Of a stretch of 64,000 bases of DNA, positions 1-18,059 are shown piece by piece. The notes under the pieces are model-generated. The model did not search any database, had not been told where the DNA came from, and saw only the letters and a list, made by a program, of their open reading frames with translations. Source of the stretch: an uncultured Chloroflexia bacterium (GTDB taxonomy: Bacteria; Chloroflexota; Limnocylindria; Limnocylindrales; CSP1-4); the NCBI GenBank assembly GCA_963840375.1, contig CAWIYR010000003.1, forward strand, positions 218,299 to 282,298, read 5' to 3'. Made by a program: the position numbers and the translations under genes. The first letter of the stretch is position 1, and every line of letters starts with the position of its first letter.

Positions 1-684
1 ATGGACGGCAATCGACGCTGGGCCACCGCTGAAGGCTATGCGCCCGGGATCGGCCACCGGCGGGGCGCCGAGAAGGCGCTCGAGCTCATCGACTGGTGCG
101 CCGAGCTCGGCATCCGCGAGGTCACCCTGTGGGCCCTCTCGATCGAGAACCTCGAGCGACCGGCGGACGAGGTCGGGGCGATCGCCGACGTGGCTGCCGA
201 CGCCATCTCGGCGATCACCGAGGGCCGGCGCCGGACCCGCCTCCCGATCCATCTCCGGGTCATCGGTCGGCGCGACCTGCTGCCCGAGAGCCTCGCGTCG
301 GTGGTCGACCGGTCGGCCGCACTCTCGAGGGACGACGGCTCGATCTCGGTCACGATCGCCCTGGCCTACTCGGGCCGCGACGAGCTCCTCGAGGCGTTCC
401 GATCGACGGTCCGGCAGGCCGTGGCCGCGGGCGTTCCGGCGGACCGCCTGGCCGACCAGCTGACCGCCGAGGACCTGGCGGCGCACCTGTACACCCAGGG
501 CTCGAGCGACCCGGACCTGATCATCCGGACCTCGGGCGAGGTGCGTCTCTCGGGCTTCCTGCCCTGGCAGAGCGTCTACAGCGAGTACCACTTCTGCGAG
601 GCCTACTGGCCGGCCTTCCGCGAGATCGACTTCCTCCGGGCGATCCGGACCTACCAGCTCCGCGCCCGCCGCTTCGGTCGATAG
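1..684 (+). CDS. uppS: Undecaprenyl-diphosphate synthase (cis-prenyltransferase), 5' end truncated by the window edge
   Basis: The DGNRRWA motif and the ...IRTSGE.RLSGFLPWQ... core are characteristic of UppS. The ORF runs to a TAG at 682-684. Confidence 0.9.
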   Translation: MDGNRRWATAEGYAPGIGHRRGAEKALELIDWCAELGIREVTLWALSIENLERPADEVGAIADVAADAISAITEGRRRTRLPIHLRVIGRRDLLPESLASVVDRSAALSRDDGSISVTIALAYSGRDELLEAFRSTVRQAVAAGVPADRLADQLTAEDLAAHLYTQGSSDPDLIIRTSGEVRLSGFLPWQSVYSEYHFCEAYWPAFREIDFLRAIRTYQLRARRFGR

Positions 685-773
685 CGACAGACGGACCTGT
701 CGCGCGTCGGTTCAGCAGGACTACGCTCTGCGCCGACACCTCACGGAGCGAGTCCCGGTCGGGAGGACGACGC

Positions 774-1415
774 ATGCCGGAAGGGGACCGGCCCACGACG
801 GGCGGACAGGGTCTGTACCGGCTGAAGCCGGCCTCGCAGCGGCTCGTCGAGCCCTTGGCCGACGGCCTTGCCCGGCGAAGGGTCTCACCGGACCTCATCT
901 CGGCCGCGGCCGTCGTGACCGCCGCCATCGGCGGAGCCTGCCTGGCCGGCTCGACCGCGATGCCGAGCCTGCTCCTCGTCGTCCCGTTCCTGGCGGCCGC
1001 CCGGCTGATCCTCAACCTCCTCGACGGGATGGTCGCCCGACGGACCGGCACCGCTCGCCCGATGGGCGAGGTCTGGAACGAGGTCGGCGACCGCCTCGGG
1101 GACATCGTCTTCATCGGCGCCCTGGCGCTCGTCCCCGAGGTGGGGCCCGGGCTCGCCCTGGGGGCCGCCATGGCCGCCGTCCTCGCCAGCTACGCCGGGC
1201 TGGCGACCCGGGCGGCCGGCGGTCGCCGCCTGTACGGGGGCGTCCTCTCCAAGCCCGGTCGGATGATCGTCCTGGCGGTCGCCGCCCCGCTCGCATTCCT
1301 GGCCGGCGATCCGCGGATCCTCGCCGTGGCCGCCGCGATCCTGCTGGTCGGCGGGGTCGTCACGCTCCTCCAGCGGCTTCGAACCGCGCTGCACGAGCTC
1401 GGTCATGCCGGCTGA
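774..1415 (+). CDS. CDP-alcohol phosphatidyltransferase family protein
   Basis: ATG at 774 is preceded by GGGAGG. The DG(x)2AR...G...G(x)3D(x)3D motif (DGMVARRTG...GEVWNEVGDRLGD) sits in a multi-TM protein, and the stop overlaps the start of the next gene. Confidence 0.8.
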   Translation: MPEGDRPTTGGQGLYRLKPASQRLVEPLADGLARRRVSPDLISAAAVVTAAIGGACLAGSTAMPSLLLVVPFLAAARLILNLLDGMVARRTGTARPMGEVWNEVGDRLGDIVFIGALALVPEVGPGLALGAAMAAVLASYAGLATRAAGGRRLYGGVLSKPGRMIVLAVAAPLAFLAGDPRILAVAAAILLVGGVVTLLQRLRTALHELGHAG

Positions 1416-2340
1416 CCTGATCGTCGACCCGCGGACCGTCCCCGGCGCCGATTACGCCGCCGGCGCGATCCTCGTCCTGCTCGGCGTGACCCTGATCAGC
1501 GTGCTCGTCGCGGGCGGTCTCGGCCGCGGCGGCGCGAGCCCGGGCACGCTCCTGAAGCGCTGGGTGACCTGGGCGGTCCTCGCGCCGCTGTGGTGGCTGG
1601 CCGTCTTCTGCGGGCCGCTCCCGGTCGCGGTGGTCGTGACGATCTTCGCCGTGGTCGGCCTGCTCGAGTTCGCCCGGCTGACCGACCTGCCCGAGGCACA
1701 TCGCCGGCTGCTGCTCGGAGCGGCGCTCCTGTCCGGGGTCCTCAGCCTGTTCGGGTCGACGGCGCTCCTCGCGGCCGTCCCGATCCTCCTCCTGGCCGGG
1801 ATGCTCCTGCCGGTCCTCTTCCCCGACATCCGGTCGGCGGTCCGGCACCTCGCCTTCGGAGCCCTGGCCTTCGGGTACCTGCCGCTCCTCCTGGGACACG
1901 CCGTCCTGATCGTCGAGGACCTGACCGGTGGCGCCGGGATCCTCTTCGCGACCGGGGTGGCGGTCGCCTTCTCGGACATCGGGGCGTACGTCGCGGGACG
2001 GACCTTCGGGCGACACCCGCTGGCGCCGACGATCAGCCCGAACAAGACCGTCGAGGGGCTGGCCGGCAACCTGGTCGGAGCCGTGATCGGCTACGCCATC
2101 TTCCTGCCGGTCCTGCCGACCCTGTCGCCCGTCCTGCTGGCCGCCCTGCCGATCGTCGTCGCGCTCGGCGCGGTCTGGGGCGACCTCTTCGAATCGGCCC
2201 TGAAGCGCGAGTTCGGCACGAAGGACACCGGCACCTGGCTGCCCGGCTTCGGCGGCCTCCTCGACCGGATCGATTCGCTGATCCTCGTCGTCCCCCTCAT
2301 CTACTACCTGTTCCGGGCGGCGGGAGTGCTCAAGCCATGA
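1405..2340 (+). CDS. cdsA: Phosphatidate cytidylyltransferase (CDP-diacylglycerol synthase)
   Basis: C-terminal CdsA signature ...KREFGTKDTGTWLPGFGGLLDRIDSLILVVP..., polytopic membrane protein. Confidence 0.85.
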   Translation: MPADLIVDPRTVPGADYAAGAILVLLGVTLISVLVAGGLGRGGASPGTLLKRWVTWAVLAPLWWLAVFCGPLPVAVVVTIFAVVGLLEFARLTDLPEAHRRLLLGAALLSGVLSLFGSTALLAAVPILLLAGMLLPVLFPDIRSAVRHLAFGALAFGYLPLLLGHAVLIVEDLTGGAGILFATGVAVAFSDIGAYVAGRTFGRHPLAPTISPNKTVEGLAGNLVGAVIGYAIFLPVLPTLSPVLLAALPIVVALGAVWGDLFESALKREFGTKDTGTWLPGFGGLLDRIDSLILVVPLIYYLFRAAGVLKP

Positions 2341-5046
2341 GCGAGGAACGGATCCTGGTGGGGCCGCCGGTCCCCGAGTCGCTCCGCGAGCTGACCGGCG
2401 AGACCCTGATCGAGCTCCTCGAGCGGGCGGTCGAACGCGATCCCGACGCCTCGGTCTTCGTGATGCCGCGGGGCCTCCGGCTCGAGCGCTGGACCTACCG
2501 CGACCTCGAACGGAGCAGCCGGCAGGTGGCCGTCACGCTCGCCGGGCGCGGGGTCGGGCCCGGTGCCCGGGTCGCGACCTGGGCGGCCAACGACCCCTGG
2601 CTCGTGGCCGCCTACTTCGCGGTCTGGCGGCTGGGCGGATCGGTGGTCCCGCTGGACCTGCGGATGGCGCCGGACGTCGCGATCCGGATCGGGCGGACCG
2701 TCCGGCCGGCCCTCACCCTGGCCGGCGCAGGCGGTGAGCGTCGAGGACGCGGCAGCGCTCGGCGCGCCGGTCCTGCGGGTCGACGCCGGGACGTTGCTGG
2801 GGACCGCCGGGGCGGACCAGGCTGCGCCCCGCGGGGACGACCCTGGGGCAGGCGCGAAGCCCGTGAGCGCCTCGATCACGGTGGCCCCCGACACGCTCGC
2901 CGAGGTCCTGTTCACGAGCGGGACGACGAGCGACCCGAAGGGCGTGATGCTGACCCACGGCCAGATGATCCACAACGCCCGGACGATCGCCCTCACCGCC
3001 GGGATCCGCCGCGAGCGGGCCCTCGCGCTCATCCCGCTCTCCCACATGTACGGCCAGATCGTGCCCCTCCTGTATGGGCTGCTCACCGGCTCGCAGCTGA
3101 CCTTCCTGCCCGCCCTCACCCCGTCGGCGCTGATGGCGGCGATGCGACGCGACCGGGTCACGGTCATCACCGCGGTGCCCCAGCTGCTCAAGCTCCTCAT
3201 GGACGGGATCGAGGCCGAGGCGAACCGCGAGGGGCGACTGGACCGACTCCGGCAGATCCGCCGGATCGCCCTCGTCCTGCCCATCCCCGTCCGGCGGCTC
3301 CTCTTCCGCTCGGTCCTCGAGCGCTTCGGCGGGGAGCTCCGGACGATCACCTGCGGCGGCGCGGCCCTTTCGGCCGACCTCCAGCTCGCCTGGGAGGCGC
3401 TCGGGATCGTCATCGTCCAGGGCTACGGCGCGACCGAGTGCGCCACGATCGCCGGTCACACCCGGACCGCCCGCCGGGCCGGGACCGTCGGGCCACCGCT
3501 GGCCGGGATGGAGGTCCGGATCGGGTCGGACGGCGAGCTCATCGCCCGGGGGCCCAACGTCATGCTCGGCTACTGGGACAAGCCCGAGCAGACCGCCGAG
3601 GTCATCGTCGACGGCTGGGCACATTCCGGCGACGCCGCCGAGATCGACCCCCATGGCGACCTCATCATCCACGGCCGCACCCGGGACCGGATCGCCCTGC
3701 CGAACGGTCTGAAGGTCTACCCCGAGGACGTCGAGGCGGCGATCGTCGAGGCCGGCTCCGTCCGGGCCGCCGTGGTCTTCGAGGCGAGCCCGGGTCGACT
3801 CGCCGCGGTCCTCCTGCCGGCCGATCCCGCTGCGGCGGACGCCGACCTCGACGGCGCGGTCGAGCGCGCGAACCACGCCCTCTCGCCCCACCAGCGGGTG
3901 CGACGCTGGGTCCGCTGGCCGGACCCCGAGCTGCCGCGGACGCACACCCTCAAGGTTCGCCGGGCCGAGGTGCTGGCCTGGTACTCGGCCGATGCCGGCA
4001 CCACCGGGTCCACGACGACACCGGAGACCGAGGCGACCGACGAGCGGGCGAGCCCCGGAGCGTCCGGCGGCGGCGCCGGTCCCGGACGGCGCTCCGGGTC
4101 GTCCCCGACCGCCGACGGATCGAGGGTCGTCCCGACCTCCGCCGAGGCCGTGCTTCCGGCACTCATCGACCTGGTCGCCCACGTCGTCGAGGCTGGTGGG
4201 CACCCGAGCTCCCCGATCGGGCCGACGACCACCCTCGAGGCCCTCGGCTTCGACTCCCTCGGCCGGGTCGGGCTGGCGATCCAGATCGAGGATCGCTTCG
4301 GCTCGTCGCTCGATGACTCGGACATCGCGGGCGCCGAGGATATCGCCGGGCTCGCCCATGTCATCGTGGCGCGACGCGATGCCGCCCCGCCCCCGGAGCC
4401 ACCCCGCTGGGCGCACACTCCGCCGGCGAAGACGGTCCGGCGCTGGCTCGACCGGCTTGTCACCGGCCCGGTCGTCGCGATGATCGCCCGCCCCCGGGTC
4501 GACGGGCTGGAGCACCTCGCCGGGCTCGACGGCCCGTTCCTGCTCTGCCCGAACCACGCCAGCCACCTCGACGCGCCGACGCTCCGGTCTGTCCTGCCGG
4601 CCGCGGTGCGCGACCGGACCGCGATCGCGGCCGCCGCCGACTACTTCTTCGCCGGCGGCCTCCTGGGACCCGCCGTCGCGCTGGCGACCGGGGCGTTCCC
4701 GTTCGGCCGGACCGAGCACGTCCGCTCGTCGCTGGAGCGGGTCGGGTCGTATGTCGACGCCGGCTGGAACGTCATCGTCTTCCCGGAGGGCACCCGCTCG
4801 ACGACCGGCCGGCTCGGGCCGATGAAGGCCGGGATCGGCCTGCTCGCCACACAGCTCGGCGTGCCGGTCGTGCCGATCGGGATCCGCGGCGCCGACCGGA
4901 TCCTGCCGAAGGGCGCCACCCTGCCGCGGTGGCGGGGGCGGGTCGGCGTCCGGATCGGCGAGCCGCTGACCTTCGAGCCCGACTGCCCGGTGCCCGAAGC
5001 GACCGCCCGGATCGAGGCGGCGATCCGGGGTCTCGTCGGGGCTTGA
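2337..5046 (+). CDS. Fused fatty-acyl-AMP ligase/acyl-CoA synthetase, carrier (PP-binding) domain and lysophospholipid acyltransferase (PlsC-like); interrupted by one +1 frameshift near 2722-2735
   Basis: The N-terminus (MSEERILVGPP...VVPLDLRMAP...RPALTLAG) reads in frame 0 from 2337; sense then continues in frame 1 (AQAVSVEDAAALG...LFTSGTTSDPKGVMLTH...). The product has an AMP-binding core, a GFDSL phosphopantetheine-attachment motif, and NHASHLD (HX4D) plus FPEGTRS acyltransferase motifs. Confidence 0.7.
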
Positions 5047-5047
5047 G

Positions 5048-6382
5048 ATGGCGCTCCGGGCGCTCTCGAACGCGGAGTACGTCGCGGACGTCGTCGGCGC
5101 CGCCCTGGCCTACCCCGCCTACCGGCGTCGGGAATCCTGGTCGACCGATCGGCTCCGGGCGTGGCAACTCCGTCGGGTCCGGTCGCTGGTCGACCGGGCC
5201 TACGCCTCGGTACCCGTCTACCGGGAGCGCTACGGTGCAGCGGGCTACCACCCGGGCGACATCCGGACCTGGGATGACTTCGCTCGCCTGCCGACCATCA
5301 CGAAGGTGGATCTCGTCGGCGCGTACCCGGAGCGGTCGGTGGCGGCCGACACCCCGCTGGCCCGCTGCCTGATCTCGACGAGCTCCGGGTCGACCGGTCG
5401 GATGATGGAGATCCCCCACCGAGCCGACCGGCTCTGGCCCTATGTCCTGGTCACCGAGCGCCTGTTCCGACGCCTGGCCGGGCGCTACCCACCGAGCTGG
5501 CGGCAGGCCTACATCTACACCTCGCCCTATCCGGTCCGTGGCTCGCTCGGGCTCTACCCGACGACATTCATCCCGACCGCGGACGACCCGGCGCCGATGC
5601 TCGACGCGCTGCGGCGCTGCCGGCCCCGGCTCCTGGCGGTCTATCCGACCGTCCTGCGCGACCTCCTGGCCGCCGACGCCGCGACGATGCGGGCCCTCGG
5701 GCTGCAGGCCGTCGCCGTCTCGAGCGAGCACTCGACGGCCGAGGAGCGTCGCGGTTGGACCGAGCTGCTGGGCTGCCCGGTCGGCGACCAGTACAGCAGC
5801 GAGGAGCTCGCCTACATCGCGGCCGAGTGCGTGGCGGGGACCTACCACCTCGTCGAGGACCTGACCCTCGTCGAGATCCTCGACCCCGACGCCGATCGAC
5901 CGGTCGACGGGATCGGCGAGGTCGTCGGGACGGAGCTCCACAACCGGACGATGCCGTTCATCCGCTACCGCCAGGGCGACCTCGCCCGGGTCGAGATGGG
6001 GACCTGCCCCTGCCGTCCGACGGCCGGTCCGGTCCGCCGGCTGACCGAGCTCGCCGGGCGAGCCAACGACGGCTTCATCCTGGCTGGCGGGCGGACGCTG
6101 TCGCCGGGCTTCCTCCTCGACGCCTGCTACCGGGCGATCCTGCCCCGACCGGCCGAGGTGGCGGCCTACCGGCTGGTCCAGACGGCGCCGGATCGGGCCG
6201 TCCTGGAGGTCGTCCCGGGCCCGACCTGGGACGAGGCGAGCGCCGGGCGGCTCGGCGCGGCGCTGGCCGCCGAGCTCCCGCTCGACCTTCGGGGCGACGT
6301 CCGGGTCGTCGAGCGGCTCGACCGCGCCGAGGCCGGCAAGCGGGCGACGATCGTCCGCCATCGGTCGCTCAGCGCAGCGTGA
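5048..6382 (+). CDS. Adenylate-forming enzyme of the phenylacetate-CoA ligase / coenzyme F390 synthetase (PaaK/CapK-like) family
   Basis: P-loop-like STSSGSTGRMMEIPH motif and overall PaaK-like layout; start codon lies 1 nt after the previous stop, suggesting translational coupling. Confidence 0.75.
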   Translation: MALRALSNAEYVADVVGAALAYPAYRRRESWSTDRLRAWQLRRVRSLVDRAYASVPVYRERYGAAGYHPGDIRTWDDFARLPTITKVDLVGAYPERSVAADTPLARCLISTSSGSTGRMMEIPHRADRLWPYVLVTERLFRRLAGRYPPSWRQAYIYTSPYPVRGSLGLYPTTFIPTADDPAPMLDALRRCRPRLLAVYPTVLRDLLAADAATMRALGLQAVAVSSEHSTAEERRGWTELLGCPVGDQYSSEELAYIAAECVAGTYHLVEDLTLVEILDPDADRPVDGIGEVVGTELHNRTMPFIRYRQGDLARVEMGTCPCRPTAGPVRRLTELAGRANDGFILAGGRTLSPGFLLDACYRAILPRPAEVAAYRLVQTAPDRAVLEVVPGPTWDEASAGRLGAALAAELPLDLRGDVRVVERLDRAEAGKRATIVRHRSLSAA

Positions 6383-6827
6383 AGTAGGCGCCGTAGATGA
6401 CGACCATGAGCCCCACGTACCCTGCCATGACCGCCCGCGGGTGGCGGCCGATCGGACGCCGGAAGACGGTCCCCACGACCCAGGCCACCGCGGCCGAGAG
6501 CCCGACCCGTTCGAGCCGGTTCAGGGCGACCATCAGCAGGACGCCCCCGAGCGGCTGGCCGAGGAGCGCCGCCTCGTGGATGTAGAGCTTGACCGGGAGA
6601 CCCTGGAGGGGGCCGTTCAGGAACGCCCCGAGCCCCTGACCGCCGAGCTCGCCCGACGCGGTCGCCAGATCGACCGGGCGGATCCCCGGGAGGGCCGCGA
6701 TGGCCTCGCCGAGGACGGGCCAAACCGGGGTGAGCCACCACAGGACGGTCGCGCCGACGAGCGCACCGGCGACCGTCGCCAGGAGGACCTTGAGCGTCCG
6801 CCCGGGAGCGAACAGGGCCACGAACAT
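6369..6827 (-). CDS. DedA/YqaA-like (SNARE-associated) membrane protein; N-terminus unresolved (homology continues upstream to about 6935 without an in-frame start codon)
   Basis: C-terminal part of minus ORF 6369..7730: ...LLFLVPDLWVMFVALFAPGRTLKV...GIRPVDLATASGELGG... is YqaA-like. The only in-frame canonical start is the ATG at 6827; the first TM and ~10 hydrophobic residues before the VP motif lie upstream of it. Confidence 0.45.
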   Translation of the reverse strand: MFVALFAPGRTLKVLLATVAGALVGATVLWWLTPVWPVLGEAIAALPGIRPVDLATASGELGGQGLGAFLNGPLQGLPVKLYIHEAALLGQPLGGVLLMVALNRLERVGLSAAVAWVVGTVFRRPIGRHPRAVMAGYVGLMVVIYGAYFTLR

Positions 6828-6920
6828 GACCCACAGGTCGGGGACCAGGAAGAGGAGCGACGCCTCGGCGGCGCCCCAGCCGGCCGCGACCCAGAGCGCA
6901 CCGGTGGAGGCGGCGATCCG

Positions 6921-8205
6921 GTGGATGGTCGAAGGGGAGCGCGGCTCGGCGTCGCGGCCCGTGGTCGCGCCGGGTGGCGCGTTCGCGTCGGAAGCAGGCG
7001 CCGCCGCGGACTGCGTCTGCGCGCCCGCCTCACCGCCCTGCGTTCGGGGATCGTCTACAGCCGGGTCTGGGAGGACGACCGGGTCGACCGGCTGGCCCTC
7101 GCGATCGAGCCCGGCGACCGGGTCCTCGTCGTCGCCTCGGCCGGCGACGTCGCCCTTCATGCCGCGCTCGACGGCGCCCGAGAGGTCATCGCGGTCGACC
7201 GGAACCCCGCCCAACTCCACCTCCTGGAGCTCAAGCTCGCCGCACTTCGGACGCTCGACGCAGATGCGTTCTGGACACTCTTCGGCGAAGGCCGCTCGCC
7301 GGCCGGCGCCGCCTGGTACGACCGGCTGCGACCGGCGCTGCCGCCTCCGAGCCGGCGGTACTGGGACCGGCACGCCGGGCTGTTCGACCTGGGACTGATG
7401 CACCAGTCCCGGGTGGAGCTGGGCCTCCTCCTCCTCGGTCCGCTCGTTCGTGGGATCGCGGGCCGGCGGGACTTCGCCCGACTGATCGAGGCGCCCGATG
7501 TCCGGGCCCAGGGACAACTCTACGCCCGCCGCTCGGCGCGACGCCTGTGGAATCCGGTCACCCGCCGGGCGATCCGGTGGAGCGGGCTGCTGGCCCTGCT
7601 CACGATGAACCGCGAGCAGTGGCGCCTGGTCGGTCGACGACCGCTTCCTCGACGGCTTCGAGGAGCGGGTCGCCTCCCTCGTTGACCGCGAGCTCGTCCG
7701 CGAGAACCCGTTCTGGTGTCGCGTCCTCACCGGGCAGCCGTGCGAGCAGGCTCACGAAGTCGCCTATCTGGCGCCCGGGGCGTTCGAACGTCTCGGCGGC
7801 TGCGCCCCGGCGATCCGGCCCCGGCTCGGCCCGCTCGTGATGATCCTCCGGGGCGAACCCGACGCGAGCCTCGACGCGATCGATCTCCTCGACGTCCCCG
7901 ATTGGCTGCAGCCGCCGGCCCGGCGTGAGCTCTGGGGCGAGGTCGGCCGGGTCCTCCGGCCGGGCGGGCGGTGCCTGACCAGGTCGATCTCGCGACGGCC
8001 GGACCTCCCCGGCCCGGGTCGCGGCCTGGTGCTGGACGGGCCGCTGTCGAGGCAGCTCACCGCGATGGAGCGGACGGCCGTCTACGGCTCGGTGACCGTC
8101 CTCCGGAGGGCCGCGGTCGAGTCAGGCCCGGCCGGCCGGCCGGTCGCCGACGCGCCGGTCAGCGTCGGGCCGATCAGCGCCGGGCCGGTCGCCACAGCGC
8201 GGTGA
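6921..8205 (+). CDS. DUF3419 / BtaA-like protein (family of S-adenosylmethionine:diacylglycerol 3-amino-3-carboxypropyl transferase); frameshift near 7609-7627, start uncertain
   Basis: IVYSRVWEDD, VLVVASAGDVALHAAL, VIAVDRNPAQLHLLELKLAALRTLD and FWTLFG read in frame 0; ENPFWCRVLTG...DAIDLLDVPDWL... continues in frame 1 to the stop at 8205. The nearest in-frame canonical start is the GTG at 6921. Confidence 0.55.
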
Positions 8206-8659
8206 TCGTCGAGCCCGGGAGGAAGCCCTCGAACGAGCCCACCGGCTCGAACCCGAGGCGCCCGTAACGGGCGTCATCGGCTGGGTTCGTCGACTCGAGG
8301 TAGGCCGGCATCCCCTGGCCGTCGATCAGCTCCAGGTTGTCCGCCAGCAGACGCATCCCGTGACCGGCACCACGATGGTCCGGGTGCGTCCCGAGCAGGC
8401 TCAGATAGTGGTGCGGCTCCGACCGGTACCCGGGGCGCCCGCCCCGGGTAGCCGCCGCGCCCGCCTGGGCCGACGAATCGTGACAGGTGACCACCAGGCG
8501 GGCACTCGACAGCGGAGACCCGCCTCTCGAGGCCTCGCGAACCCGCGATCCATCCCGGGCCACGCTCACGCCGGGCGATCCATCCGTTCGAGAAGCCCGA
8601 ACCAGGGCCCGAGCGGGGCTCGGGCGGTGACGAATGACCGGGTGATGGGCATCTGACAA
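8174..8659 (-). CDS. GNAT family N-acetyltransferase (C-terminal half is clearly GNAT; N-terminal half atypical and possibly disrupted)
   Basis: YLSLLGTHPDHRGAGHGMRLL...AYLESTNPADDARYGRLGFEPVG matches GNAT motifs A/B; the N-terminal 80 aa are Arg/Ser-rich and not GNAT-like. Confidence 0.45.
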   Translation of the reverse strand: MSDAHHPVIRHRPSPARALVRASRTDGSPGVSVARDGSRVREASRGGSPLSSARLVVTCHDSSAQAGAAATRGGRPGYRSEPHHYLSLLGTHPDHRGAGHGMRLLADNLELIDGQGMPAYLESTNPADDARYGRLGFEPVGSFEGFLPGSTITALWRPARR

Positions 8660-8665
8660 GAAGCG

Positions 8666-8718
8666 GGCCCCCGGCGCGAGATCATGGCCCCCGGCGCGGG
8701 ATCATGGCCCCCGGCGCC
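8666..8718. repeat. 20-bp tandem direct repeat, about 2.6 copies (ggcccccggcgcg[a/g]gatcat)
   Basis: Visible directly: gcccccggcgcgagatcatggcccccggcgcgggatcatggcccccggcgcc immediately upstream of the GNAT start. Confidence 0.6.
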
Positions 8719-8758
8719 GAACGGGGCCGGGGCCGCCACCGAGCCGATGTCGCTCTGG

Positions 8759-8782
8759 ATATTCCGATCGCGATCGGAATAT
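8759..8782. promoter_or_regulatory. Perfect 24-bp palindrome ATATTCCGATCGCGATCGGAATAT (candidate operator for a dimeric regulator)
   Basis: Exact reverse-complement symmetry, and AT-rich relative to its surroundings, in the long GNAT/nrdJ intergenic region. Confidence 0.45.
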
Positions 8783-8961
8783 CGTACGGACGTTCGATTT
8801 CGGCGATCCCACGACCCTCCGTGCCGGTGCCATCCGAGCTCCCGCCAGGCTCACACCCAGCCACCGCGCCATCCGTTCGTCCACACTCCGTCCACCGTCG
8901 CCGACGACTCGTCCACAGCCCGATCGGGAGCTGTCCACCGCGGATGCCCAATTCATCCACA

Positions 8962-9012
8962 GCCACAGCATGTAGCGGTACGATGGTCCGGCGCACCACT
9001 ACATCTTGTGTT
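8962..9012 (+). promoter_or_regulatory. Two tandem NrdR-box-like sites upstream of nrdJ
   Basis: acagcATGTAGcggt and CACTACATCTTGTG both approximate the NrdR box consensus acaCwAtATaTwGtgt. Their centre-to-centre spacing is about 31 bp, the usual tandem arrangement, and they lie about 350 bp upstream of the nrdJ ATG. Confidence 0.5.
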
Positions 9013-9356
9013 TCGGGGGTTGACTGCGGCCGGAGCGGGAGGTATCGTAGGAGGGTCGCTCGCCCGCGAGGGAACGCGCCGGAACGACCGCTCGGGACCG
9101 CTCGGATCGCGGCTCCAGGGTCGACCCGGGACCCGCCCGGAACGACGATCACGGAGGACCGGTCGCAGCTACGCCCGACGGGCACCACCAGAGCGAGTGG
9201 ACCCTCGACCCGGGCACGGACAAGCCTCCGGACCCAGTCCATCGACCCACCGGCATCGTGGGTCCCAGCCGCCGCATCAAGCCCCCGTCAGCCCCACCGA
9301 CCCCGGCGGAGACCGGGGACCCGCACCCGCCCAGCGCGTTGGAGGAGAGAGCAACG

Positions 9357-12300
9357 ATGGCCCGAGCCGCCGTCCAGGGAGTCCCGGTGATGGAACAGCC
9401 CAAGTCCACCGGTCGGAAGACGCCGCACCGCCACCACGGCCCGTACGGGGTGAGCTTCAACGGCCAGAACCCGGACGGCAGCCCCGCCAGGGGCCTGACC
9501 TTCGAGCGGCGCTGGACCCGGCCGGGCGTCCATCCCTACGACGAGATCCGCTGGGAGACCCGGACCGCGACCATCGGCAACGAGTCGGGCAAGCTCGTCT
9601 TCGAGCAGAAGGACGTCGAGGTCCCGGAGTTCTGGAGCCAGCTGGCCACCAACGTCGTCGTCAGCAAGTACTTCCGCGGCCACCTCGGGCACGCCGGAGC
9701 GCGAGACGAGCGTCCGCCAGCTCATCGACCGGGTCGTCAACACGATCGCGGCCTGGGCCGAGACCCAGCGCTACTTCGCGACCGACGCGGACCTGCGAGA
9801 CGTTCAAGGCGGAGCTCACCCACCTCCTGGTCCACCAGAAGATGAGCTTCAACTCGCCGGTCTGGTTCAACGTGGGGATCGAGCAGAAGCCGCAGTGCTC
9901 GGCCTGCTTCATCAACTCGGTCCAGGACTCGATGTCCTCGCATCATGGACCTGGCCAAGACCGAGGCGATGCTCTTCAAGTTCGGCTCGGGCGCCGGCTC
10001 CAACCTCTCCCCCATCCGCTCCAGCCGGGAGAAGATGTCGGGCGGCGGCACGGCCAGCGGCCCGGTCAGCTTCATGAAGGGCTACGACGCCTTCGCCGGC
10101 GTGGTGAAGTCGGGCGGCAAGACCCGGCGCGCCGCCAAGATGGTCATCCTCGACGTCGACCACCCGGACATCCTCGACTTCATCGACTCGAAGAAGCACG
10201 AGGAGGAGAAGGCCTGGGCGCTCATCGAGATGGGCTACGACCCCAGCTTCACCGGCGAGGCCTACGGCTCGGTCTTCTTCCAGAACGCGAACCACAGCGT
10301 CCGGGTGACCGACGAGTTCATGCAGTCGGTGGTCGACGACCGCGACTGGACCACCCACGCCGTCGTCGACAAGAAGCCGATGGGCACCTACAAGGCGCCG
10401 CGACATCTTCCGCCGGATGGCCGACGCCGCCCACCTCTGCGGCGACCCCGGGATCCAGTACGACACGCACGATCAACGACTGGCACACCTCGCGCGAACA
10501 CGGACCGGATCTACGCCACGAACCCGTGCTCCGAGTACATGTTCCTCAACGACACGGCCTGCAACCTGGCCAGCCTCAACCTCATGAAGTTCGTCCGCGA
10601 GGACGGTGAGTTCGACGTCGAGGCCTACCGCTACGCCGCCGGCTGACGATCACCGCCCAGGAGATCCTCGTCGACAACGCGTGCTACCCGACGCCGCGGA
10701 TCGAGGAGAACTCCCATCGCTTCCGGCCGCTCGGGCTGGGCTACGCCAACCTCGGCGCGCTGCTCATGAGCCGCGGCCTGGCCTACGACAGCGACGAGGG
10801 CCGGGACTACGCCGCCGCCCTGACCGCGATCATGCACGGCGAGGCGTATCGCCAGAGCGCGATCATCGCCCGCGACCACGGCGGCCCGTTCGCCGAGTAC
10901 AAGGTCAACGAGCAGCCGTTCCTGCGGGTCATCGGCAAGCACCGCGACGCGGCCTACCGGATCCCGGCCGACCAGGCGTCCCGGCCGACCTGCTGGCGGC
11001 CGCCCGGGTCGTCTAGGACGAGGCCCTCGAGCTGGGGCCGGCAGCACGGCTACCGCAACGCCCAGGTCACCGTCCTGGCCCCGACCGGCACGATCGCCTT
11101 CATGATGGACTGCGACACCACCGGCATCGAGCCGGACATCGCCCTCATCAAGTACAAGAAGCTCGTCGGCGAGGGCTTCCTCAAGATCGTCAACCAGACG
11201 GTCCCGGCAGCGCTCAAGAAGCTCGGCTACGCGCCCGACCAGGTCGAGGAGATCCTCGCCTACGTCAACGAGCGCGAGACGATCGAGGGCGCCCCGCACG
11301 TCAAGCCCGAGCACCTGTCGGTCTTCGACTGCGCGTTCAAGCCGGTCAACGGCGAGCGGTCCATCCACTACATGGGCCACGTCCGGATGATGGCCGCCGT
11401 CCAGCCGTTCCTCTCGGGCGCGATCAGCAAGACCGTCAACATGCCCGAGGCCGCCACCACCGAGGAGATCGAGCAGGTCTACCTCGAGGGCTGGAAGCTG
11501 GGTCTCAAGGCGATCGCGATCTACCGCGACGGCTCCAAGCGCAGCCAGCCGCTGAGCACGGGCAAGAAGAAGGACGACGAGGCCGACGCCGGGGTCGTCG
11601 CCGAGCTCCGGGCCCAGCTCGCCGCGGCCCAGGCCGAGGCGAAGAAGCCCCACCGGCATCGGCTGCCGACCGAGCGGACCGCGATCACCCACAAGTTCGA
11701 CATCGCCGGCCACGAGGGCTACATCACGGTCGGGCTCTACCCGGACGGCCAGCCCGGCGAGATCTTCCTGAAGATGGCCAAGGAGGGCTCGACCGTGTCG
11801 GGCCTGATGGACACCTTCGCGACCTCGGTCAGCCTCGCCCTCCAGTACGGCGTGCCGCTGCGCGACCTGGTCAACAAGTTCGCCCACGTCCGGTTCGAGC
11901 CGAGCGGCTTCACCGGCAACCAGGAGATCCCGATCGCGAAGTCGATCGTCGACTACATCTTCCGCTGGATGGGCAGCCGCTTCCTGCCGGCCGACGAGAA
12001 GGCCCAGATCGGGCTGATCGACCGTGCCGCGGTGACGGACGCCCCGGCCGCCGGCGGGTTCGGTGGCGGCTTCGGTGGGTTCGCCTCACCGGCCGCTGAC
12101 GCCCGACGGCCGAGGAGGGCCCGTCGGCCATCGACGAGGCGGTCGAGCCGCCGTCCGACCGAACCGCGGGCGACCGCGGTCGCCGCCGAGCCGGCGCCGG
12201 TCGCCAAGGCGGCCCTGCCGGTCGTCGAGTCGGCTGCCACCAACGGTCACGCGAACGGCAACGGGAACGGCAAGGCCAACGGGAACGGCAACGGTCACGC

Positions 12301-12454
12301 CCTGAGCGCGATCACCGCCTCGCTCGGGACGACGAAGGTCTCCTTCACCGTCCAGGAGGACGCCCCCAGCTGCGCCGAGTGCGGCTCGATCATGGTCCGC
12401 AACGGCAGCTGCTACAAGTGCCTCAACTGCGGCAGCACGAGCGGCTGCAGCTGA
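9357..12454 (+). pseudogene. nrdJ: Adenosylcobalamin-dependent ribonucleoside-diphosphate reductase (class II RNR) NrdJ; as written it is broken by at least 8 frameshifts, probably sequencing or assembly indels rather than decay
   Basis: Strong SD (GGAGGAGAGAG) before the ATG at 9357. Conserved NrdJ sense (FEQKDVEVPEFWSQLATNVVVSKYFRG; ETFKAELTHLLVHQKMSFNSPVWFNVG; GSGAGSNLSPIRSSREKMSGGGTASGPVSFMKGYD; NPCSEYMFLNDTACNLASLNL; LAPTGTIAFMMDCDTTGIEPD; AIAIYRDGSKRSQPL; C-terminal CxxC...CxxC tail) jumps between all three forward frames at roughly 9695, 9800, 9940, 10400-10500 (two), 10640 and 10975-11035 (two). Confidence 0.85.
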
Positions 12455-12474
12455 ACCCCTCCCCGAACCAGCGA

Positions 12475-12504
12475 CCGAAGGCCGGGCGATGAGCCCGGCC
12501 TTCG
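12475..12504. terminator. GC-rich hairpin (11-bp perfect stem, 5-nt loop) between convergent nrdJ and the response regulator gene; likely bidirectional intrinsic terminator with no U-tract
   Basis: gaaggccgggc-gatga-gcccggccttc. Confidence 0.5.
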
Positions 12505-12570
12505 ACGTCGTAGCGGCCCGAGGTCTCGCGAGGCCACCCGGATCCCCGTCGGGGCCGACCCCCAGCCGAG

Positions 12571-13203
12571 CTAGAGCTGCGGCTCGAGCCAGCCTTTCTC
12601 TCGAGCGATCCGGGCAGCCTCCGCGCGGTTGCGGGCTCCGACCTTCTGGATGGCCGCCGACAGGTGGTTGCGGACCGTCCCCTCGGTGAGCGACATCGCG
12701 CCGGCGATCTCGGCGATCGTGCCGCGCTCACTGGACACGGCCAGGACCTCCCGTTCGCGGTCCGACAGCGGGTTGTCGCCGTCGGCGAGGGCATCGAGCG
12801 CGAGTCCAGGGTCGACCACCCGCTGACCCGCCGCGACCCGTCGGATCGCGACCGCCAGGTCCCCTGCCGGGGCGTCCTTGAGCACGAACCCGGTCGCGCC
12901 CGCCTCCATCGCCTGGCGAAGGTAGCCCGGCCGACCGAACGTCGTCATGATGAGGACACGACAGCCCGGGACCGCCCGACGCAGCGCCGCCGCGGCCGAC
13001 AGGCCGTCGAGCCCGGGCATCTCGATATCGAGGACGGCGACATCGGGTCGGCCCTCGAGGGCCGCTGGTACGACCTCGTCGCCGCGAGCGCACTGGGCCA
13101 CCACCTCGAGGTCGGGCTCCATCGACAGGAGGGCGGCGACGGCGCCGCGGACCATCGCCTGGTCCTCGGCGATCAGGACCCGGATCGACGACTGCCGACT
13201 CAT
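12571..13203 (-). CDS. Two-component response regulator, NarL/FixJ (LuxR-type HTH) family
   Basis: REC domain (IRVLIAEDQAMVR...DVAVLDIEMPGLDG) plus C-terminal LuxR HTH (LSDREREVLAVSSERGTIAEIAGAMSLTEGTVRNHL). Confidence 0.9.
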   Translation of the reverse strand: MSRQSSIRVLIAEDQAMVRGAVAALLSMEPDLEVVAQCARGDEVVPAALEGRPDVAVLDIEMPGLDGLSAAAALRRAVPGCRVLIMTTFGRPGYLRQAMEAGATGFVLKDAPAGDLAVAIRRVAAGQRVVDPGLALDALADGDNPLSDREREVLAVSSERGTIAEIAGAMSLTEGTVRNHLSAAIQKVGARNRAEAARIAREKGWLEPQL

Positions 13204-14327
13204 CCCAGGGCCCCTTCACCGTCGGACACCGGTACCCTCGCCAGCAGCCGGTAGCCACCCGTCGGGAGGGGGCCGGCCTCGAGACGGCCGCCGACGAGCT
13301 CGAGCCGCTCATGCAGACCGCGCAGCCCGGATCCGCCGTCCGCATCCCCATTCGCCGCTCGGGCCGGAGCGCCAGGTCCGCCGGCTCCCGGGCCATCGTC
13401 GACGACCTCGAGCTCGACGGACCCGCCACGCCGCTCGGTCCGGATCGATCCGTGCCGTGCCGCGCTGTGGCGGACCACGTTCGTGACGGCCTCGCGGACG
13501 GCCCAGGCGAGGATGGCATCCTCCGGGGCCGGCAACGTCCCGGCACGATTCTCGATGCGCGGCTCGATGCCCGCGGCCTCCAGGGCCCGCCGAGCGCCCG
13601 CGAGCTCGGCGTCGAGGGTCGGCTGGTGATAACCGCGGACGGTCTCGCGTACCGAGGCGAGCGACTCGCGGGCGACCTGCTCGATGTCGGCGATCTCGGC
13701 CCGGGCCCGCTCGGGGTCGCCGGGGAGCAGCCGGCCGGCGAGCTCGCTCTTGATCGCGATGAGCGACAGGCTGTGGCCCAGCATGTCGTGGAGGTCGCGG
13801 GCGATCCGGTCGCGCTCCTCGGCGACCGCGGCGGCGGCCAGCTCTCGTCGGGCGGCATGCAGCTGGAGGTTCGTCCGGCGAAGCGCAGTGGCCGAGAAGA
13901 CCGTGAGCCCGATCGTGGAGATCGAGACCCCCTGGAGGAAGGCCCCGGCTGCGTCGCCGGTCGACTGCTGGAAGCTCAGCCCGCCAAGGATCCCCGCGAC
14001 GACGATGAGGACGATCGCGCGCCGATCCGGCTGGAGCAGGCTGGCTGCCGTCGACGCGTAGTAGAAGAGGACGATCCACCCGGCCGAAGGGTCGTGGAGG
14101 GACGCCCCCGTCGCGATCAGGATGAGCGCCACGTCGGCGAGCGCCGCGATGGGGCTCGATCGCCAGCGGTGCCCGGCAGCGCGGCGGGCGAGTCCGCCGA
14201 GCAGGCCGGCGAAGATCGCGGCGGCCGCCAGGACCAGGATCGCGTCGACCGGCTCCGTCGGGGTGGAGAGGACGCGGATGACCGGGTAGGCGATGAACAG
14301 GAGGCCCGCGAACCGGAAGAACGGCAT
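13200..14327 (-). CDS. Sensor histidine kinase (HisKA_3/NarX-DesK type) with an N-terminal multi-TM sensor
   Basis: ATG at 14327 (MPFFRFAGLLFIAY...); H-box ERDRIARDLHDMLGHSLS; HATPase_c GxGxG region; 4-bp ATGA overlap with the downstream response regulator. Confidence 0.85.
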   Translation of the reverse strand: MPFFRFAGLLFIAYPVIRVLSTPTEPVDAILVLAAAAIFAGLLGGLARRAAGHRWRSSPIAALADVALILIATGASLHDPSAGWIVLFYYASTAASLLQPDRRAIVLIVVAGILGGLSFQQSTGDAAGAFLQGVSISTIGLTVFSATALRRTNLQLHAARRELAAAAVAEERDRIARDLHDMLGHSLSLIAIKSELAGRLLPGDPERARAEIADIEQVARESLASVRETVRGYHQPTLDAELAGARRALEAAGIEPRIENRAGTLPAPEDAILAWAVREAVTNVVRHSAARHGSIRTERRGGSVELEVVDDGPGAGGPGAPARAANGDADGGSGLRGLHERLELVGGRLEAGPLPTGGYRLLARVPVSDGEGALG

Positions 14328-14355
14328 CCCGCTGCCCGCCCGGGGCAGCGCCTCG

Positions 14356-15147
14356 TCAGGCACCGGAGCCCGCCTCCGAGGTCCGGTACCGCCAGACGAC
14401 GAGCGCGCCGAAGATCGCGGCGTACGCGCCGAGGACCGCCAGGTCGATCGGGGACGGCGGCTGGCCGGTGACCGCTGCCCGGCCGAGGTCGGCCAGCCGG
14501 AACGACGGCAGCATGCGACCAATGGTAGCCAACGCGTCCGGGAACGACGAGAGCGGTGCCCATAGTCCGCCGAGGATCGACAGCGCGAAGAAGCAGATCA
14601 TCATCGCGCCCTGGGCGCTGTCGGCGTCGAAGACGTAGCCGATGAGCAGGCCCAGGGCCGCGAACGGCAGCGAGCCGAGCACGAGCGAGCAGAAGACCTG
14701 GACCCAGTCGGCGGCGGACAGGCGGACGTTGTCGACGAGGAAGCCGGCCAGCAGGACCGCGGCGACCGCGGGGACCGTGACGACGTAGGCCACCAACAGC
14801 TTGGCCGACACGTAGCCGACCGCCGACAGGGGGGTCACGCGGAGCTGGCGGGCCCAGCCCGAGGCGCGCTCCTGGGCGATGATCACCGCGCCGCCGAGGG
14901 CCGCCGCGATGGACGCATAGGCCGCCATCGAGACCATGAAGTAGGTTCCCCAGGTGGTCCCGTCGATGGGCGCGTCGGCCCGGGCGGCCCCCTGCGAGAG
15001 CACGCCCGTGTAGAGCAGATAGAAGACGGTGGGGAAGGCCACTGCGAACAGCAGGTAGCGCCGGTTCCGGAGGGCTCGCCGGAATTCGAGGCGGACGAAC
15101 GCCGCGAACGGTGGCAGCGCGCCGGGACGGTCGACACTGGCGATCAT
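14356..15147 (-). CDS. ABC-2 type transporter permease
   Basis: Six predicted TM segments and typical ABC-2 permease composition; 4-bp overlap with the upstream ATPase gene. Confidence 0.8.
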   Translation of the reverse strand: MIASVDRPGALPPFAAFVRLEFRRALRNRRYLLFAVAFPTVFYLLYTGVLSQGAARADAPIDGTTWGTYFMVSMAAYASIAAALGGAVIIAQERASGWARQLRVTPLSAVGYVSAKLLVAYVVTVPAVAAVLLAGFLVDNVRLSAADWVQVFCSLVLGSLPFAALGLLIGYVFDADSAQGAMMICFFALSILGGLWAPLSSFPDALATIGRMLPSFRLADLGRAAVTGQPPSPIDLAVLGAYAAIFGALVVWRYRTSEAGSGA

Positions 15148-16169
15148 CGTTCTCCTCTCTCTGGGTGGTCGCGGTCGGTCAGGGCGAGGAAGGCGTCCTC
15201 GAGTCCGGCGCTCCGGACTTCGAGATCGCGGACGTGGAGGCCGGCGACGTACAGGGCCCGGACGGTCGCGTCGGCGTCGTCGCTGGCCAGCTGCACGGCC
15301 GTCCCGTGGATCTCGACGGCGGTGACGCCGGGGAGCTCGGCCAGGGTCGCGGCATCCGGAGCGCCGGACGTCGCCAGGTCGAACCTGACGGTACGGCCGG
15401 TGACCTGCCCCCGGATCGCCCGGCCGGTCCCGTCGGCGACCACCCGGCCCCGGTCGAGGACGACGACCCGGTCGGCGACCTGGTCGGCCTCCTCCAGATA
15501 GTGGGTCGCGAACAGGATGGTCCGGCCCTCATCGGCCGAGCGCCGCATGTCGGCCCAGAAGGATCGCCGGGTCTCGACGTCCATGGCCACCGTCGGCTCA
15601 TCCAGGAAGACCAGATCCGGGTCGCCCGCGATCGCCAGGGCGAACCGGACGCGTTGCGCCTCACCTCCGGACAGCCGATCCGCGGTCCGGTCGACGAGTC
15701 CGCCGAGTCCGGTCCGCTCCAGGAGCGCCTCCCGAGCGAGCGGGTTCGGATACAGGCGACGGGCGAAGTCGACGAGCTCGCCGACCCGGACGTTGGCGGG
15801 CAGCGCCGCCTGCTGGAGCATCGCCCCGACGCGGCCGCTCGCGAGCGCGGCCCGGGGCGCCAGTCCGAGCGTCGTGACCCGACCTTCGGTCGGCTCGAGC
15901 AGACCGAGCATGAGTCCGATCGCGGTGGACTTGCCGGCACCGTTCGGGCCGAGCAGGGCGACGGTCTCGCCCGACGCGATCGACAGGTCGAGCGAATCGA
16001 GCGCGGTGACCTCGCCGAACCGGCGGGTCACCCCGCTGAACCCGATCGCGCCGGAGGCGATGGCCTGCTGGGTCCTCGCGGCGACCGGCATCGGCGATGG
16101 AAGGGTGGAACCCTGCATGAGCGGTACCTCGTGGGGGCGAGTGGTCATGCCAGGAGTCTCGCCCTCCAC
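15144..16169 (-). CDS. ABC transporter ATP-binding protein
   Basis: Walker A GPNGAGKST, signature LSGGEAQRV, Walker B LVFLDEPT; the start is either 16169 or the MTTRP ATG at 16148. Confidence 0.85.
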   Translation of the reverse strand: MEGETPGMTTRPHEVPLMQGSTLPSPMPVAARTQQAIASGAIGFSGVTRRFGEVTALDSLDLSIASGETVALLGPNGAGKSTAIGLMLGLLEPTEGRVTTLGLAPRAALASGRVGAMLQQAALPANVRVGELVDFARRLYPNPLAREALLERTGLGGLVDRTADRLSGGEAQRVRFALAIAGDPDLVFLDEPTVAMDVETRRSFWADMRRSADEGRTILFATHYLEEADQVADRVVVLDRGRVVADGTGRAIRGQVTGRTVRFDLATSGAPDAATLAELPGVTAVEIHGTAVQLASDDADATVRALYVAGLHVRDLEVRSAGLEDAFLALTDRDHPERGER

Positions 16170-16291
16170 CCCCTCGAGTCGAAGTCACGCCCATCCGGAA
16201 CCCGTCGTTACGCCGCCGGATGCGTCGGCGTGACGCGTGTCATGCCGACGCAGGAGGGCGCACCTGCGGCGCGTCGTCGGGTGTCAGCCCG

Positions 16292-16726
16292 TCAAGGCAG
16301 GTCCGGCGTCCGATCGCGGGCCATCAGGATCGCCACCCGCTCCTCTCGCGACATCGCCGCGACCCGGGCCGCCTCACGAGCGAGTGCCTCGAGCTGCACC
16401 TCGGGGATCGGGTCGCCTTCGCGGTAGGTGACGAAGCGGACCTTGCGGAGTCCGAGATGGGCGCCCTCGAGGAGCCGCTCCGGGTCGGACAGGTAGGTGC
16501 CCACCTCGAAACCGAGATGGACGTGGATCGGCTCGGGCGCGACGTAGGCGAAGTAGACCGTCCGGCGCCCGACCGGGAGGTCGTAGCCGATGAGTCGCCA
16601 GCCCGGGCGGACCCGTTCCACGGCCTCGGGTGCCGCCCGCCGAACGATCGCCCGAAGCCGGTCGGCAGCGGCATGGATCCGGTCCGGGTAGGACTCGAGG
16701 AAGAGGTCGGGCGGGATCGGGTCCAT
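16292..16726 (-). CDS. DUF1801 (YdhG-like) domain protein
   Basis: The sequence from MDPIPPDLFLESYPDRIHAAADRLRAIVRR... to ...TYREGDPIPEVQLEALAREAA is typical of DUF1801; ATG at 16726 by in-frame arithmetic. Confidence 0.7.
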   Translation of the reverse strand: MDPIPPDLFLESYPDRIHAAADRLRAIVRRAAPEAVERVRPGWRLIGYDLPVGRRTVYFAYVAPEPIHVHLGFEVGTYLSDPERLLEGAHLGLRKVRFVTYREGDPIPEVQLEALAREAARVAAMSREERVAILMARDRTPDLP

Positions 16727-16770
16727 GGCAGCGTCATGATGCACCGGGTCGGTTCCGGCACAATCGGCCG

Positions 16771-17880: not shown

Positions 17881-18059
17881 CCGGGCTCGGTCGACCGCGC
17901 CCGACCTGGCGGCCGCCGCTCGTCGAAGACCGACGGGTCGGGGTCGGCGGCCCCCAGAAGCGGCATGGTCTCGGCTCGATCCGCCGTCGCCTGACATCAT
18001 GACGTCGCCGGCCACGCGATACTTGGGGGCCTCACCCCCGTCCGGTCCAGGGAGCACGA

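Follow-up and report, generated by a model that had tools for sequence, protein, structure and literature searches.

Several described arrangements in bacteria bring together some of the enzyme families considered here. The adjacency of uppS and cdsA is familiar from housekeeping loci; PaaK-like ligases occur together with PlsC-like acyltransferases in the aryl-polyene, flexirubin and xanthomonadin clusters; and DedA proteins recycle undecaprenyl phosphate, the transport substrates of DedA/VTT proteins still being debated. The locus described here occupies positions 1-8659 of a 64,000-nt stretch of DNA from an uncultured Chloroflexia bacterium (assembly GCA_963840375.1, contig CAWIYR010000003.1; the whole stretch is called the window below). 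An initial annotation, made from the letters of the DNA alone, had read eight adjacent genes in it as a dedicated pathway for an unusual polar lipid. We find that six of these genes belong to a module that is kept together in about eleven phyla and probably makes an as yet undescribed membrane phospholipid. Every enzyme of the module comes from a known superfamily, and the cluster as a whole is one of phospholipid biosynthesis and modification; what is new in itself is a CDP-alcohol phosphotransferase subfamily with two asparagines in its catalytic motif (N/N), together with an adenylating enzyme and a DedA-like protein that occur as a fixed pair. A literature search found no description of this gene combination or pathway, and among the NCBIfam equivalogs none fits the products of genes B, E, F, G or X as defined below.

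Coding frames were chosen by third-position GC, and families were named with Pfam and NCBIfam. Because the G+C content of the locus is so high (72-75%), lists of open reading frames (ORFs) are crowded with shadow frames. The six genes of the module in the window, for which we use single letters, are as follows.

774-1415, plus strand: gene B, a CDP-alcohol phosphotransferase of 213 aa resembling phosphatidylinositol phosphate synthase and archaetidylinositol phosphate synthase (PIPS/AIPS-like; named from NCBIfam, fold and alignment)
1405-2340, plus strand: gene C, a CdsA-family phosphatidate cytidylyltransferase (Pfam CTP_transf_1)
2337-5046, plus strand: gene D, an AMP-binding/PP-binding/PlsC fusion (Pfam; frame broken)
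5048-6382, plus strand: gene E, a PaaK-like adenylate-forming enzyme (PDB profile match and NCBIfam)
6369 to about 6947, minus strand: gene F, a DedA/VTT-like membrane protein of about 185 aa (family-level VTT_dom matches)
6921-8205, plus strand: gene G, a DUF3419 (BtaA-family) protein (Pfam DUF3419; frame broken)

The genes are tightly packed: B and C overlap by 11 nt and C and D by 4 nt, D and E are separated by 1 nt, E and F are convergent with a 14-nt overlap, and F and G diverge from a short common region. All eight families that had been assigned to positions 1-8659 are indeed there, close to where they had been placed, with the corrections that F lies on the minus strand, that the GNAT gene is a remnant and that two frameshifts break the locus. 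Taken as a whole, the initial annotation is borne out in part; it overlooked the frameshifts, the strand of F, the motif change in B and the separability of B-C-PlsC from E-F-G.

Gene E was used as the anchor for comparison with other genomes: a profile of it was built, 80 genome loci were taken, the window proteins were mapped onto them and all ORFs were clustered, with shadow ORFs antisense to real genes, which are common as "conserved" clusters in high-GC loci, being discarded. Phylum labels are those found in the record titles of the loci. The nearest loci are from uncultured Chloroflexota ("uncultured Chloroflexia bacterium") and farther ones are from Candidatus Limnocylindria or Limnocylindrales. 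At least one of F, G or X (X being a gene of other genomes, treated below) is carried by 43 of the 80 E-anchored loci, and in 33 of those 43 either B or C lies within 8 kb. These partnered loci with B or C bear about eleven phylum-level labels: Chloroflexota (Limnocylindria, Anaerolineales), Acidobacteria, Elusimicrobia, Omnitrophica, Verrucomicrobia, Kiritimatiellota, Lentisphaerales, Planctomycetota, Marinamargulisbacteria, a metagenome-assembled genome (MAG) labelled Saccharibacteria, and Gemmatimonadota. The module thus comprises B, CdsA, PlsC (alone or fused to a ligase and an acyl carrier protein, ACP), E, F, and G or X. Its genes stand in at least eight distinct orders, for example B-C-D-E-F-G (the window), E-F-G-B-C-D, B-PlsC-C-X-F-E, D-B-C-X-F-E and X-F-E-B-C, and its flanks are unrelated from locus to locus (ClpB, GidB, permeases, sulfatase, MoxR, cytochromes). 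Linkage kept through shuffled orders and among unrelated flanks is the pattern expected for a functionally coupled module.

Two architectures recur. In one, found in Limnocylindria and a few other lineages, G follows E, and the stop codon of the one often overlaps the start codon of the other; in the other, found in the Planctomycetes-Verrucomicrobia-Chlamydiae (PVC) group, Acidobacteria, Omnitrophica, Elusimicrobia and Margulisbacteria, there is no G and X stands before F and E, again with overlapping codons, so that codon overlaps outside the window were seen both in X/F/E and in E/G. Together with the B/C and C/D overlaps and the 1-nt D/E spacing of the window, we read these overlaps as translational coupling, in favor of a joint pathway. 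X is not encoded anywhere in the 64,000-nt window. No recurring gene for head-group supply, such as an inositol-phosphate synthase, was present in the flanks of ten diverse loci. Synteny in other genomes holds for B, CdsA, PlsC, E, F and DUF3419, and the proposed eight-gene lipid locus is reduced to six genes linked beyond chance, UppS and GNAT being mere neighbors. Because these six genes are linked across about eleven labels in shuffled orders, a dedicated pathway for an unusual polar lipid is a reasonable reading of the module, the betaine lipid suggested as its product (diacylglyceryltrimethylhomoserine, DGTS) being unlikely for the reasons given with gene G.

E matches the phenylacetate-CoA ligase structure 4r1l in a profile search (E-value 4e-38), and 175 homologues of it were found. 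Among NCBIfam models it scores 117 bits with the DVU_1553 family and 100-105 bits with the PaaK models TIGR02155/NF041878, whose cut-offs are 646-700; all its scores are below cut-offs, and by sequence comparison E is PaaK-like at the superfamily level only. Its invariant residues include G430-K431 (the A10 lysine), C261, C320 and C322. In a neighbor-joining tree, the G-linked and X-linked E proteins form separate subclades, both apart from partner-less PaaK-like proteins of Clostridia, candidate phyla radiation (CPR) bacteria and archaea. X is about 480 aa long and has no Pfam match; because it carries ANL-type motifs and matches PaaK weakly, we read it as a second, very divergent adenylating enzyme.

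Two further neighbors of E were seen elsewhere. In Myxococcota (L026, L028, L039 and others; Polyangiaceae, Enhygromyxa), an E homologue of 42-46% identity adjoins a fatty-acid-desaturase-family protein of about 460-500 aa encoded upstream, with B, C, F, G and X not nearby; we count this desaturase as further lipid context for E, in favor of a lipid role. Separately, a membrane protein with a weak match to Caroten_synth (PF04240)/CruF is encoded beside E-G in Leptospirales, Gemmatimonadota and the Saccharibacteria-labelled MAG (L058 7800-8738, L066 6273-7328, L065 about 12043-12822 and L059 12975-13784).

The window copy of F itself matched no Pfam or NCBIfam model, and hhalign of the F profile against the single E. 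coli YqaA and DedA sequences gave probabilities of at most 1.5%. Its AlphaFold2 (AF2) model is all-helical (pLDDT 93), and its profile finds 1626 cluster representatives. Despite the null hhalign result, we assign F to the DedA/VTT superfamily because 47 of the 134 F-family representatives tested (35%) match VTT_dom (PF09335), with a best E-value of 3.7e-8; the evidence is transitive, and F would be a divergent branch of that superfamily. The earlier call of a DedA/YqaA protein is thus sustained through other members of the family and not through the window protein. The start of F is unusual as well. No ATG, GTG or TTG lies upstream of an invariant N-terminal motif (W17, E21, P29, D30) in the stretch 6827-6947 on the minus strand; the first canonical start (6827) would remove this motif, and upstream there are only ATC codons (6917, 6926). 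The stretch overlaps the 5' end of G on the opposite strand, and since the same situation is found in three related assemblies (L001, L003, L006), the start of F may be non-canonical.

Gene B, whose ATG is preceded by GGGAGG at a distance of 7 nt, departs from its superfamily in the catalytic motif. With Pfam PF01066 it scores 17 bits, which does not pass the cut-off of 22, while the homologues in L004 (22.6) and L059 (31.4) do pass. The NCBIfam equivalogs for PIPS and AIPS (NF045883, NF040950) give scores below cut-off as well (82 versus 180 for AIPS; 59 versus 170 for PIPS), a pattern that the Kiritimatiellota B shares; JGI labels the homologues as phosphatidylglycerol phosphate (PGP) synthase. 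B nevertheless aligns collinearly and over its full length to the Mycobacterium tuberculosis PIPS PgsA1 (6h53), and its AF2 model (pLDDT 88.5) has the six-helix fold of CDP-alcohol phosphotransferases. In Foldseek, its 13 best matches are all PIPS chains (template modeling (TM) scores 0.67-0.79, probability 1.00), with 6h59/6h53 at the top (TM 0.71-0.79), and PGP synthase, phosphatidylserine (PS) synthase and choline phosphotransferases match worse.

The four-aspartate signature of the superfamily, D1-x2-D2-G-x2-A-R-x8-G-x3-D3-x3-D4, is absent from B, which reads N-x2-D-G-x2-A-R-x8-G-x3-N-E-x2-D-x3-D, with asparagine for both D1 and D3. This N/N motif is invariant in 34 loci, covering all module-linked B proteins of all phyla, and is present in 114 of 120 database homologues. 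B keeps D2, G, A, R, G and D4, and the arginine adjacent to D4 is kept in most lineages. In PgsA1, D68 and D89 hold the di-magnesium site and D93 is the presumed catalytic base; residue 94, which is reported to be K or R in every CDP-alcohol phosphotransferase, is required in PgsA1 to bind inositol phosphate (PMC6506517). The equivalents of D71 and D93 are kept in B. The residue after D4 is valine in the B proteins of L037, L045, L049 and L064 (Omnitrophica, Lentisphaerales, Margulisbacteria and one Planctomycetota), which suggests that the acceptor differs within the B family. No inositol-phosphate synthase is linked to B in any flank inspected. In sum, the call of a CDP-alcohol phosphatidyltransferase is supported by the PIPS-like fold and has to be qualified by the sub-threshold Pfam score and the altered motif.

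Gene G, starting from a GTG at 6921 with GGAGG upstream, spans the DUF3419 family (PF11899) over its full length: its two halves score 158.6 and 52.2 bits, and the intact homologue in L001 scores 213 bits. It aligns over 92-95% of its length to BtaA-like genes of Shinella. With rhizobial BtaA it shares only 26-30% identity, and the match to Sinorhizobium meliloti covers 39% of G. In S. meliloti, the methyltransferase gene btaB directly follows btaA. No methyltransferase was linked to G in the 28 G-containing loci. With no linked btaB and so low an identity to rhizobial BtaA, the DGTS-type betaine lipid put forward for this locus is unlikely. As a side observation, btaA of S. meliloti Ak57 (CP090106.1; L087 1755-2995) seems to be split into two frames and is unannotated, with the downstream btaB annotated; this 3.7-Mb record is labelled pSymB and looks chromosome-sized.

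The remaining two enzymes have intact motifs. C scores 177 bits with CTP_transf_1 (PF01148), above the cut-off, which places it in the CdsA family, and it aligns to the Thermotoga maritima CdsA 4q2g (E-value 9e-25). With NCBIfam models it scores 95 bits for bacterial CdsA and 22 bits for archaeal CarS. The catalytic motifs S-x-x-K-R...K-D...D-R-x-D are kept, and PGHGG is replaced by PGFGG in Limnocylindria only. D is an Aas-like fusion that combines AMP-binding and PlsC motifs with a carrier serine, its domains (Pfam) being arranged as follows.

2337 to about 3990, plus strand: adenylating domain
about 4141-4407, plus strand: carrier domain
4408-5037, plus strand: PlsC acyltransferase domain

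The motifs read in translation, TSGTTSDPKG, GFDSL (with the carrier serine), NHASHLD (H-x4-D) and FPEGTR, are all intact. A different fusion, a 1137-aa MFS-Acyltransferase-AMP-binding protein of the LplT-Aas type (L049 6130-9543, minus strand), adjoins X-F-E-B-C in the Marinamargulisbacteria MAG.

The domain identities, the catalytic motifs (apart from the N/N pair in B) and the linkage are the observations on which a biochemical scheme can be built; the substrates, the order of the steps and the role in flipping are in each case our conjecture. In general terms, the module would make a dedicated phospholipid with a decorated head group, which is then flipped across the membrane, and to this we assign a probability of about 0.45; any single step deserves much lower confidence. 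The first sub-module, B-C-D, would build a dedicated phospholipid precursor. D would activate a fatty acid, keep it on its own carrier domain and acylate lyso-phosphatidate (or, where PlsC stands alone, that enzyme would make phosphatidate); C would convert phosphatidate to CDP-diacylglycerol; and B, with its remodelled metal site, would move the phosphatidyl group onto an anionic alcohol akin to inositol phosphate. A PAP2 phosphatase gene adjoins B in L059, which fits a phosphorylated product that is dephosphorylated later. The second sub-module, E-F-G, would decorate and move the lipid: G might use S-adenosylmethionine (SAM) to modify a free hydroxyl with a 3-amino-3-carboxypropyl group or one like it, with X standing in for G elsewhere; E might adenylate a carboxylate with ATP and attach it, in the simplest case through an amide bond to the newly added amino-acid-like moiety; and F might translocate the product across the membrane. 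Whether this amounts to a new lipid class is a more tentative matter. Such a class would consist of a phosphatidyl-polyol made by the N/N form of B, a head group bearing an amino-acid-like unit (from SAM or ATP) and a dedicated DedA-like flippase, set in mostly uncultured phyla (Limnocylindria, PVC, Acidobacteriota, Omnitrophota and others), and we regard it as doubtful.

Several points weigh against the scheme. B-C-PlsC is found without E, F, G or X within 9 kb in all three B-anchored loci (in the order B-C-D or C-PlsC-B), and E-G is found without B or C in Leptospirales loci. Since they are also found apart, B-C-PlsC and E-F-(G or X) are two separable sub-modules, very often but not always joined, and because they are separable they may work on different molecules. 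The lineage might also have in B-C-PlsC its ordinary phospholipid operon. The asparagines in place of the metal-binding D1 and D3 could mean a different chemistry in B, or none. Since the named families closest to E form CoA derivatives of aryl or acyl acids, E might feed an unusual acyl donor to PlsC instead of decorating a head group. Finally, D and G are out of frame in the sequence as it stands.

The last-named role for E leads to another kind of product, a phospholipid with an unusual acyl chain, in which E activates an aryl or otherwise unusual acid (as CoA or ACP derivative), PlsC installs it, CdsA and B finish the lipid, and G/X and F are accessory; the pigment clusters mentioned at the outset pair such enzymes in a similar way. 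The best named relatives of E are indeed aryl/acyl-acid ligases (PaaK, BagE/FevW and the flexirubin enzyme FlxY); E is directly preceded by PlsC in the window and in the majority of Limnocylindria loci; and the sequence PlsC, CdsA, B is linear and needs no added assumption. Nevertheless, all E scores are far under the cut-offs of those families, and E is coupled more tightly and more widely to F and G/X than to PlsC: E-G pairs occur without a nearby PlsC, and in PVC-type loci C, X and F lie between PlsC and E. Linked thioesterase or polyketide genes are lacking. We consider this product unlikely. The same grade seems apt for mere housekeeping adjacency, in which B-C-PlsC is an ordinary operon of the plsC-cdsA-pgsA type next to uppS, and E, F and G share no product. 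The uppS-cdsA arrangement described above, the B-C-D trio standing alone in the three B-anchored loci, the JGI label for B and the ordinary motifs of CdsA all agree with it. However, uppS adjacency is limited to the closest relatives, B is PIPS-like with an invariant N/N pair and is no canonical PgsA, and chance adjacency fits poorly with B or C lying within 8 kb in 33 of the 43 partnered E loci, under about eleven labels, in at least eight orders and among unrelated flanks.

Two further pathways are far less probable. If G were a BtaA orthologue, it would make diacylglyceryl-homoserine from diacylglycerol (DAG) and SAM, on the way to DGTS. Its full-length family match (213 bits for the intact homologue) and its 92-95% coverage against the Shinella genes speak for this, but the low identity to rhizobial BtaA, the 39% coverage with S. 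meliloti and the lack of a linked methyltransferase in any of the 28 loci, where S. meliloti has btaB, speak against it; PVC-type modules have an adenylating enzyme in place of G, and a DAG-based betaine lipid needs neither CdsA nor a CDP-alcohol transferase. We therefore hold this to be very unlikely. An isoprenoid-lipid pathway, with UppS, a CdsA-like enzyme, an AIPS-like B and a DedA-like F acting on polyprenyl phosphate or another isoprenoid lipid, is slightly less credible still. UppS is adjacent in the clade of the window, a polyprenyl synthase stands beside C/B in L059, the CruF-like proteins stand beside E-G in L058, L059, L065 and L066, archaeal AIPS is the best NCBIfam model for B, and the recycling of undecaprenyl phosphate by DedA proteins would suit it. 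In contrast, PlsC, an acyl-glycerol enzyme, is a core member of the module, UppS linkage is absent outside that one clade, C resembles bacterial CdsA far more than archaeal CarS (95 versus 22 bits), and neither geranylgeranylglyceryl phosphate (GGGP) synthase nor digeranylgeranylglyceryl phosphate (DGGGP) synthase is linked.

The other two genes of the locus are bystanders and not module members.

1-684, plus strand: uppS, a cis-prenyltransferase (Pfam Prenyltransf), its 5' end lost at the start of the window
8174-8659, minus strand: H, a GNAT remnant (weak Pfam GNAT matches)

UppS scores 230 bits with Pfam and 191 bits with TIGR00055 (cut-off 109.55), as expected of a member of that equivalog, and only the closest relatives (L001-L003, L005 and L006) have it next to B. 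The GNAT match (PF00583, 22.7 bits) covers profile positions 48-116 only and is not a complete domain. By tblastn, residues 120-196 of the intact 201-aa GNAT protein of L001 (its approximately 77 C-terminal residues) match window positions 8192-8422, and its N-terminal 119 residues have no match in the window. A homologue is present only in L001/L005, adjacent in only one of the closest relatives. Beyond the locus, the roughly 700 bases at 8660-9356 ahead of nrdJ are lower in G+C (0.69-0.72) and hold no convincing coding frame and no cobalamin riboswitch detectable with Rfam; no Rfam family was matched in a scan of the whole window. Downstream of nrdJ, at 12571-14597 on the minus strand, are a LuxR-type response regulator and a HisKA_3-type histidine kinase, a pair that in L003 is followed by an ABC transporter pair.

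The frame of D shifts at about 2720-2731 through one surplus G relative to L001 and L006 (tblastn and DNA alignment), and that of G at about 7631 through one surplus G relative to two relatives with intact genes; D therefore has no uninterrupted reading frame in the window, and its L001 homologue is intact at 912 aa. The adjacent gene nrdJ (9357-12454), which encodes a ribonucleotide reductase of class II (B12-dependent), is out of frame in at least five patches, at about 9700-9960, 10400-10500, 10640, 10985-11040 and 12050-12190, and an in-frame stop at 9843, and between the patches its protein is near-identical to that of a relative. The closest relatives are long-contig Microflora Danica "MFD" MAGs. 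Because nrdJ is equally damaged, we take the breaks in D and G to be probably nanopore assembly indels and not gene decay, and a pseudogene reading of the frameshifts was set aside on the same ground. In L002, a genome related at 78%, nrdJ (15562-18342) carries a LAGLIDADG_3 domain inside Ribonuc_red_lgC, probably an intein, which is absent from the window copy.

If a distinct lipid is made by this module, it would add a pathway to bacterial membrane biochemistry. The module extends over about eleven phyla, abundant in soil, freshwater and sediment but rarely cultured, and it could, if it makes such a lipid, explain polar lipids that environmental lipidomics has left unassigned. On the more tentative reading of a new lipid class, E-F would be the first adenylating enzyme in a fixed pair with a DedA-family protein. 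The E-F pairing offers a concrete, testable substrate context for a DedA/VTT-family protein, and the B family is a natural experiment on the strictly conserved metal site of CDP-alcohol phosphotransferases, with D1 and D3 as asparagine. The Kiritimatiellota strain B12222 (L044) carries the module in a complete genome, which suggests that the strain is cultured; if so, the prediction is directly testable.

Compared with known systems, each part of the module shares a core with a described family and differs in its setting. Like PIPS and AIPS, B has the same length, the six-helix fold, a collinear alignment and a K/R-P-x-R stretch corresponding to ERPER of PgsA1; it differs in the replacement of D1 and D3 by asparagine, in the glutamate after the second asparagine and in scores under the equivalog cut-offs. 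Like Aas and LplT-Aas, D joins an AMP-forming fatty-acid ligase and a PlsC-type acyltransferase in one polypeptide. In contrast to those systems, the ligase comes first in D, a carrier domain is built in and the linkage is to CdsA and B instead of LplT; the ligase domain (residues about 335-455) scores 128-151 bits with the Aas models, whose cut-offs are 1221-1349. G belongs to the same Pfam family as BtaA over its full length and shares its N-terminal VY..WED and Rossmann-like motifs, but it has no BtaB partner, is translationally coupled to a PaaK-like enzyme and is swapped for X in some phyla. E shares with PaaK, BagE/FevW and FlxY the PaaK fold and the core motifs of ANL enzymes, the A10 lysine among them; it differs from PaaK in an invariant C-x-C with a third cysteine, in scores far under the equivalog cut-offs and in its partners, which are a DedA-like membrane protein and lipid enzymes and not paa catabolic genes. 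Finally, F resembles the DedA/VTT proteins E. coli YqaA and DedA in its size, its all-helical structure and an acidic residue ahead of a P-D loop in the N-terminal part, and it stands apart from them as a separate family of about 1600 representatives that is tied to E.

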